This document shows, in pieces, positions 31,079-31,897 of a stretch of DNA of 64,000 nt. Every line of letters starts with the position of its first letter. Within the stretch, counting starts at the first letter, position 1. The position numbers and the translations under genes are program-made. Below the pieces are notes generated by a model. The model ran no database searches and was not told the origin of the DNA. It was given only the letters and a program-made list of their open reading frames with translations. The stretch is from assembly GCA_028704015.1 (NCBI GenBank), contig JAQVLT010000006.1:10102-74101 (forward strand), in the 5' to 3' direction. Source of the stretch: Patescibacteria group bacterium (GTDB lineage Bacteria > Patescibacteriota > Patescibacteriia > Patescibacteriales > JAQVLT01).

Positions 31079-31897
31079 TTACAACGGACTTTTGATATTT
31101 TTTAAACTTGGTTTTGTCACCTGCGTATAAATTTGAGTAGTCCTGATATTGCAATGACCCAAGAGCTCCTGCACATATCTCACGTCTGTGCCGTTTTCTA
31201 AAAGATGCGTAGCAAAACTATGACGCAATGAATGGAAAGTTGCGTCTTTTTTTATTTTAGCTTTGGTCAAGGCATTTTCAAAAATCTTCTGCGCCGTTCT
31301 GTCGGTTAGCTTGCCGCCTTGATTACTTTCAAAAACCAAATCTTCGCCTCGCCTTCCCGCCAAATAATTTTTTAATTCTTCCCGCAATTTCTCCGGCAGA
31401 AGCGTAACCCGATCTTTTTTTCCTTTAGCTTCTTTCAAGTGAATAAAATTATTGGCGAAATCGACATCTTTTACTTTTAAATTTATGGCCTCGCTCACTC
31501 GGAAGCCAGCACCGTAAGATAAGGCAACCAATAGTTTGTGTTTGCCATTGCTTATCGCACCAATCACTTCTTCAATTTCCTCGCGCGACAAAACCACCGG
31601 CAATTTTTTGGAAGTCTTGGCAAATTTTAAATCAATCGCCACCGCGCTTTTAAAAATTTCCCGGTAAAGATGTTTAATGGCGTTGAGATGAAGATTTATC
31701 GTCTGCGACGACAAACCGCGTTCTTGTTTTTTCAGCAAATATTTTTTTATCAACTCAATCTCCGGATCTTTTTTGACTACTTTAATAAATTTAAAATAAT
31801 CAACCAAGCAACCAAGGTAGCTCTTAATCGTTTGCCGGCTGTAATTCCGCAGTTTTAATTCATTCTCAATTTTTACCAACAACTCTTTAAATTCCAT
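31079..31897 (-). CDS. tyrosine recombinase, integron-integrase-like but lacking the IntI-specific insertion
   Basis: 272 aa. Box I [25 protein letters not shown], box II [39 protein letters not shown] (R..H-x-x-R..H..Y). N-terminal SAM-like [12 protein letters not shown]. Confidence 0.9.
   Translation of the reverse strand: [272 protein letters not shown]

Follow-up and report, generated by a model that had tools for sequence, protein, structure and literature searches.

Canonical integrons, such as those served by IntI1, IntI2 and VchIntIA, combine a tyrosine-recombinase gene, transcribed divergently beside an attI site with direct repeats, with a co-oriented array of cassettes, each of which carries one structured attC site at its 3' end. 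An additional domain of canonical IntI holds the extrahelical bases of attC, which determine the choice of strand, as in the VchIntIA-VCR structure 2a3v. This insertion is called essential for integron function by Smyshlyaev et al. 2021 (PMC8138268), and Ghaly et al. 2022 (PMC9668308), who extended integrons to Archaea with the help of metagenome-assembled genomes, report the IntI-specific domain as present and needed for detection and detected the archaeal integrons with the standard attC model. IntegronFinder requires the same domain (~35-40 amino acids (aa) near patch III, helix I2). Here we describe a locus in a 64-kb stretch (hereafter the window) of contig JAQVLT010000006.1 from a Patescibacteria bacterium, in which a tyrosine recombinase without this domain stands beside an attI-like site and an array of cassettes with foldable attC-like sites. 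We put a probability of roughly 80% on the reading that its open reading frame (ORF) encodes the integrase of a Patescibacteria-type chromosomal integron, belonging to a Xer-length lineage that groups with canonical IntI and has no I2 helix domain. Such an integrase would fail the IntI-specific-domain definition that the archaeal integrons satisfy.

The catalytic residues R133, K158, H222, R225, H248 and Y257 are invariant in a multiple alignment with IntI1, IntI2, XerC and XerD, and Pfam recognizes a Phage_integrase catalytic domain (PF00589, E-value = 1e-42) together with an N-terminal SAM-like domain. The protein is ~35% identical to IntI1, IntI2 and VchIntIA and 26-29% identical to XerC/XerD, and its N-terminal indel pattern in the alignment is common to IntI. 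A preliminary description of this locus had quoted four IntI-like segments, all of which are present (at residues 98, 129 and 222, with KSPL at 269), and the IntI1 strings that it gave for comparison are correct against the real IntI1 (WP_000845054, plasmid NZ_CP059426, locus L013). It had also put the spacing between the KDR and HxLR motifs at ~50 aa, against ~90 aa in IntI1. The difference of ~40 aa was right, but both figures were about 10 too low: the spacing is 58 aa here and 100 aa in IntI1 and IntI2 (62 aa in Escherichia coli XerC and 66 aa in E. coli XerD).

The absence of the IntI additional domain, which the preliminary description had deduced from this spacing, is borne out by several comparisons. 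The deficit amounts to ~42 aa and splits in the alignment into two blocks, one opposite a 32-letter segment of IntI1 and the other opposite IntI1 QHTHSTDPRSGVV. A phmmer search against all PDB chains gave VchIntIA (2a3v) as the top match (E-value = 1.3e-43), with an alignment that falls into two parts and leaves out chain residues 212-243; the runner-up, Pyrococcus abyssi XerA (4a8e, E-value = 8.3e-43), matched in one single stretch, and the match to the integron-integrase profile TIGR02249 is likewise broken in two. In the AlphaFold2 model (mean pLDDT 88.4), the extra helix is predicted to be absent at the position of the IntI domain. Foldseek with this model again returned 2a3v as the best match (E-value = 1.6e-17, 315 alignment columns for 272 residues), followed by XerA structures.

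Among the relatives of the integrase, one protein of 324 aa (P0140, 49% identical) carries a ~40-aa insertion exactly where IntI has its additional domain, but the two are unrelated in sequence. Insertions may have arisen repeatedly at this point of the protein, as at a hot spot.

Profile searches place the protein between the named families. It scores 218.9 bits against NF040815 (archaeal XerA, with the product name 'site-specific tyrosine recombinase/integron integrase'; cut-off 220), 216.4 bits against TIGR02249 (cut-off 265), 143.5 bits against NF011946 (cut-off 435) and 184.7 bits against the XerC and XerD profiles TIGR02224 and TIGR02225 (cut-offs 335.15 and 329.6). By these curated cut-offs the integrase is assigned to none of the families; as judged from profile scores, it is equally near to IntI and XerA and clearly not XerC/D.

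A neighbour-joining tree of 40 sequences (270 columns, 300 bootstraps) was built from 23 family members, IntI1, IntI2, VchIntIA, two XerA, E. coli XerC and XerD, and short homologues of other phyla. The IntI sequences form a clade with 100% bootstrap support and the Patescibacteria family, itself monophyletic at 78%, lies outside it. At 99%, the family, the other short forms and IntI are split from XerA and XerC/D; IntI and the family alone are united at only 18%. On this tree the family is placed as a separate lineage within the supergroup of IntI, and is neither a subgroup of IntI nor a subgroup of any characterized Xer. The suggestion of a distinct integrase lineage made in the preliminary description is thus upheld, and the comparison of TIGR02249 with the Xer profiles that it had proposed gave near-equal closeness to IntI and XerA. 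Orthology with XerC/D, which it had named as a finding that would speak against its reading, is contradicted both by the scores, far below the XerC/D cut-offs, and by the 99% split. Its other concern was a second, canonical intI in the genome; tblastn with the integrase and with IntI1 found no second tyrosine recombinase in the 64-kb window.

The protein also resembles archaeal XerA and the single-recombinase systems XerS/difSL and XerH/difH in its length, its domain layout and the palindromic core site beside its gene, and the near-threshold NF040815 score and the unbroken match to P. abyssi XerA fit this likeness. It differs from XerA by the 99% split that separates the family from the two characterized XerA, and from all of these systems in that the neighbouring site here heads a cassette array with folded sites. 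We know of no Xer system for which such an array has been described.

The family itself is large. Thousands of near homologues of 272-274 aa are ~70% identical, and their named sources are Parcubacteria, Moranbacteria, Pacebacteria and other Patescibacteria; in a search of 1.84 billion representatives, the length of family members was overwhelmingly 265-290 aa. Several relatives carry the NCBI name 'site-specific tyrosine recombinase/integron integrase'. A 285-aa short homologue (40% identical) on the Clostridium tagluense plasmid NZ_CP077608 (locus L015, 174-1031) is annotated with this ambiguous name too, and its gene overlaps the beginning of a gene for an IS91-family transposase. Other mobile elements thus seem to have recruited short recombinases of the IntI/XerA-like type.

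The association of the recombinase with an array, as noted in the preliminary description, is close: only 110 nucleotides (nt) separate the start codon from the beginning of the array, and the array and the integrase gene are transcribed in divergent directions (Table 1). Between the two lies an attI-like site, whose architecture (TTCGCATA..~40 nt..TTCG.ATA.AAACGAGTT..GAAAT) is kept in 35 of 50 homologue loci, where it sits 76-214 nt (mostly ~100-150 nt) upstream of the start codon. The conserved order is TTCGCATA, then TTCG.ATA ~40 nt further on, then.AAACGA and GTT; past this GTT, conservation drops to a cassette-start consensus, GTTnnnnGAAAT. When the window is compared with locus L001, which encodes the nearest relative found (86% identical), homology of the attI region likewise ends at GTT. 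Three loci that gave no match to the covariance model of attC-like sites described below (L031, L041 and L082) still have an attI-like site. An imperfect palindrome, TTCGCATAA-(7)-TTGTGCGAA, is made up of the second direct repeat (DR2) and the R' box of the first cassette, and the motif TTCnnnTAW recurs in both direct repeats, in the L' box (TTCRGATAT) and in the complement of R' (TTCnnnTAAC). It is a putative binding arm for one integrase monomer.

The attC-like sites of the array follow the plan nnnTAAC - A - nnnnATATCYGG - hairpin - CACCCAAATTT - hairpin - CWTCRGATATnnnn - RAAC, after which come an ORF-less mini-cassette, E, and then GTTAnnnGAAAT. In terms of integron elements, R'' (..TAAC) is separated by a 1-nt spacer from L''; a three-way junction leads on to L', and a 4-nt spacer lies between L' and R' (GTTA..). 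In L001 the same elements occur without E, reading directly ..RAAC|GTTA.. at the junction. The order R''(..AAC)-spacer-L''...L'-spacer-R'(GTT..), with structure kept more than sequence, is that of canonical attC sites. The spacers are not: they measure 1 nt and 4 nt here, whereas those of canonical attC sites measure ~5 nt and 5-6 nt.

An RNAalifold consensus from eight sites, six of the window and two of L001, contains an R stem, an L stem and two hairpins, with compensatory changes in 18 of 31 pairs, and a covariance model was built from the same eight. In 78 further sites from 33 other loci, none of them used in training, 93.5% of the cells are in standard pairs, a figure somewhat inflated by the fitting of this alignment to the covariance model; it compares with 66% after shuffling and with 33-46% when partners were slid by 1-3 columns. 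Over these 78 sites, 26 of the 31 pairs vary on both sides and the covariation score is 0.576 vs 0.136. The slid controls, together with the number of pair types observed, leave little room for doubt about the structure. The preliminary description had the enzyme servicing attC-like hairpins, and the array does hold structured sites with heavy covariation, on which the enzyme would presumably act.

Sequence is also conserved at particular places of the fold. The L boxes keep a TAT centre in 76-77 of 78 sites, and their TTCRGATAT motif is the motif of the direct repeats; this conservation beyond pairing argues that a protein reads the stem. The asymmetry of the spacers is almost invariant (the single A in 77 and A336 in 78 of the 78 sites), and the variable region of canonical sites is replaced by a conserved three-way junction with a CCCAWA motif. 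In this the sites differ from those of canonical integrons, as they do in the lack of conserved extrahelical bases in the L stem: of the 78 sites, 6 have a bulged G in L' and 2 have a bulge in L''. With the interior looped out, the remaining ..TAA-CA/RAAC-GTT.. has the 6-nt arm spacing of attI, and L' stands 8 nt from GTT. The equality of the 6-nt spacing argues for a duplex form, and the substrate could be a duplex with an extruded cruciform instead of a single folded strand.

The sites are mosaics. Those of cassettes 4 and 5 (39954-40051 and 47879-48002) share their 3' half (hairpin B and L') nearly exactly and differ in hairpin A; recombination inside attC-like sites, or at their R'' side, seems to occur. 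A conserved stem-loop of ~64 nt (..TTTTAGATT-ATGGGCATTCACCCCTAACCCCTCTGCCC-AAAATCTAAAA..) is found directly before the attC-like site at the 3' ends of some cassettes, in the window at 39826-39889 and 47758-47821 and also in L001, L008, L009, L036, L047 and L086.

Structured elements of this kind might act as RNA (terminators, processing sites or small RNAs) or be self-spreading repeats of the repetitive extragenic palindrome (REP) or miniature inverted-repeat transposable element (MITE) type, their proximity to a recombinase gene being incidental. In 66 of 78 sites the L stem terminates in a conserved G-T wobble, which favours the top strand and would be a G-U pair in RNA; every site is oriented as the genes are; and the copies of E are as similar to each other as they would be after recent spread. 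Yet folding with DNA parameters makes the bottom strand better by ~2.5 kcal/mol in 66 of 78 sites. The repeat is moreover not a known RNA, since an Rfam scan of the window returned no match at gathering thresholds. We regard this explanation as very improbable, also in view of where the sites occur and how the cassettes end.

A covariance-model scan of 80 loci from species-representative genomes (E-value <= 0.01) covered 250 kb upstream and 454 kb downstream of the integrase homologues. All 84 matches lie upstream, on the strand opposite to the homologue, and no attC-like match was found in the 454 kb downstream, a distribution at odds with incidental proximity. We counted as informative those loci with a homologue at least 45% identical and at least 1.5 kb of upstream sequence (n=31). 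At least one attC-like site, and in some cases up to ten, is present in 28 of these, so that relatives without the array, which the preliminary description had considered as evidence against its reading, are the minority; where sites occur, they are always upstream and divergent. Only one of 15 loci with more distant homologues (Bacteroidota, Bacillota and DPANN archaea) has a site. At 25 of the 58 closer loci, which are on metagenome-assembled contigs, the contig ends less than 700 nt upstream of the gene; such breaks would be expected if assemblies failed at a variable or repetitive array.

On three unrelated contigs, the housekeeping genes downstream of the integrase gene differ (tmk; scpA/scpB; def/fmt). 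On all three, the gene is preceded by small, mostly unknown genes on the opposite strand, and the covariance model places sites between them. In L086, an attC-like match of 99 bits (1-102) lies 2 kb upstream of a merely 40%-identical homologue, and the system may extend beyond the core family sampled.

The recurrence of this geometry bears on a further explanation, in which the array is serviced by a canonical IntI that has the extra domain and whose gene lies on a mobile element or in another part of the genome, and the short recombinase is a bystander. Our view of the source genome spans 64 kb, and the insertion-bearing 324-aa relative shows that long forms lie nearby in sequence space. Against it, the short gene, the attI-like site and the array are arranged alike in 28 of the 31 informative loci, which represent many classes of the phylum, the window holds no second recombinase, and a canonical IntI would have to read sites without conserved extrahelical bases. 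We find this explanation hardly credible.

Evidence for mobility comes from the ends of the cassettes. Each cassette start (GTTnnnn) complements its own R'' (nnnnAAC), as in GTTAGGCGAC and GTCGCCTAAC or GTTAGCTGA and TCAGCTAAC, among others, and the complementarity widens to cassette-spanning inverted repeats of 23-65 nt. The complementarity of start and R'' is shared with canonical integrons; the long inverted repeats are not. It is the signature that a circular intermediate closed at this point would leave, and it would be purposeless for a terminator.

Cassette 7 of the array (49313-49838, with a 139-aa ORF) has a second copy, ~96% identical, outside the array, placed between a TPM-phosphatase gene and an M18-aminopeptidase gene. 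Homology of the two copies runs from GTTGTACGAAAT to ..ATCGTACAAC-AC, two bases past R''. We rejected the idea that the odd attC in the array arose by deletion from the site of the outside copy, as the two diverge at the second base past R'' and onwards. Cassette 5 has a leader that matches a cassette leader in L001 at 92% identity, from the GTT junction on (the alignment reaches one base further upstream), and the preceding cassettes differ. These boundaries are those expected of site-specific cassette movement, and breaks of homology at AAC/GTT junctions would not be expected of RNA elements or self-spreading repeats. Secondary-site insertion and ORF-less cassettes are further likenesses to canonical integrons.

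From these observations a mechanism can be proposed for the integron reading. The enzyme would bind the 9-bp arm TTCnnnTAW twice in double-stranded attI, and in the L box and R box of each attC-like site; the core arms of attI would be DR2 and the R' of the first cassette. The folded site would consist of the R''/R' stem (..TAAC/GTTA..), the unpaired A/RAAC spacer, a 12-bp L''/L' stem and the three-way junction. The R''/R' and L''/L' stems would supply the two arms and the unpaired A/RAAC the central region, such that the fold would imitate the two-arm core of attI. Strand exchange at AAC|GTT would then insert circular cassettes at attI, at another attC or at secondary GTT sites, and would also excise them. 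We infer the role of the enzyme as catalyst, its binding motif, the reacting strand or form and the exact position of cleavage. The designs of site and protein appear to go together, in that a protein without the domain that reads extrahelical bases faces sites without conserved extrahelical bases in the L stem; the asymmetry of the 1-nt and 4-nt spacers may set polarity instead.

One of the main uncertainties is whether the enzyme is also, or primarily, the Xer of the cell. The array is chromosomal, as its flanks are housekeeping genes (a Mur ligase gene with FemAB to one side of it, a U32 peptidase gene with ruvA to the other). The island is not tRNA-associated, as a scan for tRNA genes in the window found none. 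GC skew is negative on both flanks (window 1-32000 and 52000-64000, with genes on the minus strand) and about zero or positive over the array (32000-52000, with genes on the plus strand); the array as a whole thus runs counter to the DNA around it, differing from both flanks in skew and gene strand.

In XerS/difSL and XerH/difH, the dif site adjoins the xer gene. By analogy, the protein might be primarily a housekeeping dimer resolvase acting as a single Xer, with the 'attI' as its dif and the array as Xer-exploiting elements (IMEX-like or dif-module-like) piled up at dif as double-stranded sites, whose hairpins would be extruded only to join two duplex arms. The high conservation and thousands of homologues in the phylum suit such a role; the gene is always chromosomal and has housekeeping flanks. 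The accessible text of Smyshlyaev et al. 2021 (PMC8138268) describes the candidate-phyla recombinases as a Xer-related 'Cand' subgroup of simple tyrosine recombinases, presumed to be class-specific Xer substitutes. The palindrome of DR2 and the first R' resembles a dif core, and R''-CA/RAAC-R' with the interior looped out has the arm spacing of attI. On the other hand, the L boxes are conserved beyond pairing, as for a protein that reads the folded stem; the genes downstream of the integrase vary between genomes; and the family groups with IntI and not with characterized Xer. The locus also shows no sign change of GC skew in the window and gives no evidence for the replication-terminus location of Xer systems, although this is weak evidence, since skew follows gene orientation here. 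We consider a primary role as resolvase unlikely. The two roles are compatible, and the question is mainly which of them is primary.

A combined role is possible, and we hold it tentatively, as a minority view: the enzyme may be both the sole Xer and the integron integrase, in an ancestral state before IntI gained its extra domain. On that view the attC-like site would correspond to a dif-like core (arm, 6-7 nt, arm, spaced as in attI) interrupted by a hairpin that can be extruded and that bears the arm motif a second time, and the extruded site would show four arms, like a Holliday junction.

Several points weigh against an integron of Patescibacteria type. All support for recombination is comparative, and the search for another intI covers 64 kb of the source genome. 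Two features by which IntI is defined are wanting, the additional domain being absent and the TIGR02249 score lying below the cut-off. The tree is distance-based, three of its 40 sequences are partial (read off HMMER alignments), and the deeper nodes within the IntI-containing group are weak (46-58%). An identity of ~70% across orders, in a gene apparently near-universal in the phylum, is closer to what a housekeeping gene (for instance, the Xer of the cell) would show than to what an accessory integrase would. Cassette 7 differs between its two copies in the interior of attC, which the integron rule that attC travels with the upstream gene does not predict. Finally, cassettes reach 7.8 kb with five genes, far above the classical cassette size.

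Mini-cassette E is present in 7 copies of 174-194 nt that are 96-99% identical and have a GC content of ~53%; one copy has a 20-nt hairpin insertion. The 3' end of E is its own 92-nt attC-like site, in which R'' (GCGGAAC) complements the first bases of E and which scores 25-37 bits in the different copies. It occupies attI and the first six cassette junctions, and the three distal junctions are uninterrupted. By all these features E is an ORF-less mini-cassette of 176 nt inserted at crossover points. It might be selfish, might insulate neighbouring cassettes from each other, or might be a module that supplies a promoter or a terminator. We rejected the view that this ~190-nt repeat is itself the attC, as it lies between the ..RAAC and GTT.. 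of more variable sites and is absent from L001; we likewise rejected a MITE, as E sits at the attC crossover point, has an R''/R' logic of its own and is absent from L001. An exact 27-mer search found no E in JGI metagenome contigs.

At several other loci (L006, L044, L045, L063, L066 and L071, within the first 60-110 nt past the attI GTT, and also L040 and L021), the first unit is a tiny ORF-less hairpin 'cassette', consisting of GTTnnnnCGAAAT, a GC-rich loop of ~20 nt and then ATTTCGnnnnAAC. An E-like element may thus be a regular part of the platform and not cargo.

Many cassettes carry defence genes, namely DpnI, Shedu, GmrSD/HNH and an EcoRI-type methylase; an S51 peptidase is also among the cassette genes. 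Chromosomal integrons of Vibrio carry defence genes as well. The coordinates of the features are collected in Table 1.

Table 1. Features of the integrase locus, in positions of the window.
Feature	Position	Strand	Remarks
Integrase gene	31079..31897	-	272-aa tyrosine recombinase; ATG start; IntI-related, Xer-length, without IntI additional domain
attI-like site	31945..32010	+	two direct repeats, then AAACTA; crossover GTT 32008-32010
Direct repeat 1 (DR1)	31952-31960	+	TTCGCATAA; in attI-like site
Direct repeat 2 (DR2)	31993-32001	+	TTCGTATAA; in attI-like site
Cassette array	32008..52300	+	all genes on +, divergent from integrase; ~10 gene cassettes, 7 E copies; distal end ill-defined, ~52200-52330
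Mini-cassette E, copy 1	32008..32183	+	ORF-less; starts G|TTCCGC
Mini-cassette E, other copies	32831-33006, 35346-35521, 36056-36229, 40052-40225, 48003-48178, 49119-49312	+	
E fragment	50638-50662	+	25 nt
attC-like site, cassette 1	32631..32830	+	74.6 bits; R'' GTATAAC, L'' ACGCATATCTG, L' CAGATGATGCGT, AAAC; R' GTT beyond inserted E
attC-like site, cassette 2	35251..35345	+	73.2 bits; DpnI-like endonuclease, Bro-N protein, truncated methyltransferase ORF
attC-like site, cassette 3	35938..36055	+	86.7 bits; cupin protein
attC-like site, cassette 4	39954..40051	+	92 bits; trypsin-like protease and Shedu SduA
attC-like site, cassette 5	47879..48002	+	87.2 bits; 7.8-kb cassette: EcoRI-type methylase, DUF2130, GmrSD/HNH, AAA ATPase, subtilase
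attC-like site, cassette 6	48999..49118	+	65 bits
Short attC-like site, cassette 7	49777..49838	+	25.5 bits; L'' and L' mismatched; AAC|GTT contiguous, no E
attC-like site, cassette 8 (DUF218)	50518..50696	+	49.6 bits; includes the 25-nt E fragment
attC-like site, cassette 9	51446..51543	+	33.9 bits
Cassette 7, second copy	59667..60275	-	139-aa ORF 59818-60237; complete attC-like site 59667-59810, 63.5 bits

Two details of the cargo are of interest in themselves. In cassette 2, a 76-aa ORF (33105-33335) resembles an N-terminal fragment of a DNA methyltransferase (..FADPPY..) and overlaps the start of the DpnI-family gene by 4 nt; an intact methylase is absent from this cassette. DpnI-type enzymes cut methylated DNA, and a methylase may not be needed there. 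Secondly, a 5' leader of ~130-170 nt (GTTAnnnGAAAT...TTGACAGGC...AAAGGGGTAATATTGTG) is shared across cassettes, even where different genes stand behind it, both in the window (40225-40388 and 36207-36377) and in L001 (2655-2816), L026, L030, L038, L056 and L010. It may carry a promoter and a ribosome-binding site, which would make the cassettes self-expressing.

Modules bounded by Xer-type sites, with a possible tandem build-up at one locus, are also known from Xer-exploiting elements (IMEX), such as the CTX phage, and from the pdif modules of Acinetobacter plasmids. Their sites are short, double-stranded and dif-like, whereas here each module has one covarying site of 90-200 nt and the array stands beside the recombinase gene. 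The CTX phage does use a folded single strand, as one element. The 'Cand' subgroup of Smyshlyaev et al. 2021 (PMC8138268) is probably the same protein family as the integrase, and the accessible text of that paper mentions no cassette array or attC-like site. A full-text literature search on integron/attC combined with phylum names, with subscription-only papers outside its reach, returned no description of such arrays. Within the literature searched, a system that appears to work like an integron while lacking two hallmarks of IntI membership is undescribed.

In summary, the finding concerns a whole phylum and not one genome. Since the recognition of integrons rests on the IntI-specific domain, standard tools cannot call the Patescibacteria system a complete integron. 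If our reading is true, chromosomal cassette platforms are almost universal in a bacterial group that is very large and of which little has been cultured, and cassette recombination at hairpin sites would be possible without a domain thought to be essential. The frequent assembly breaks immediately upstream of the integrase gene would also be explained, as would the way in which bacteria with a genome size of ~1 Mb keep and trade defence genes (restriction, Shedu and GmrSD-type). With a natural intermediate at hand, the descent of integrons from Xer-like enzymes could be put to a direct test. The candidate phyla radiation makes up a large share of bacterial diversity, and a joint Xer and integrase system, if true, would be a missing link between Xer/dif and IntI/attC that is near-universal in it.

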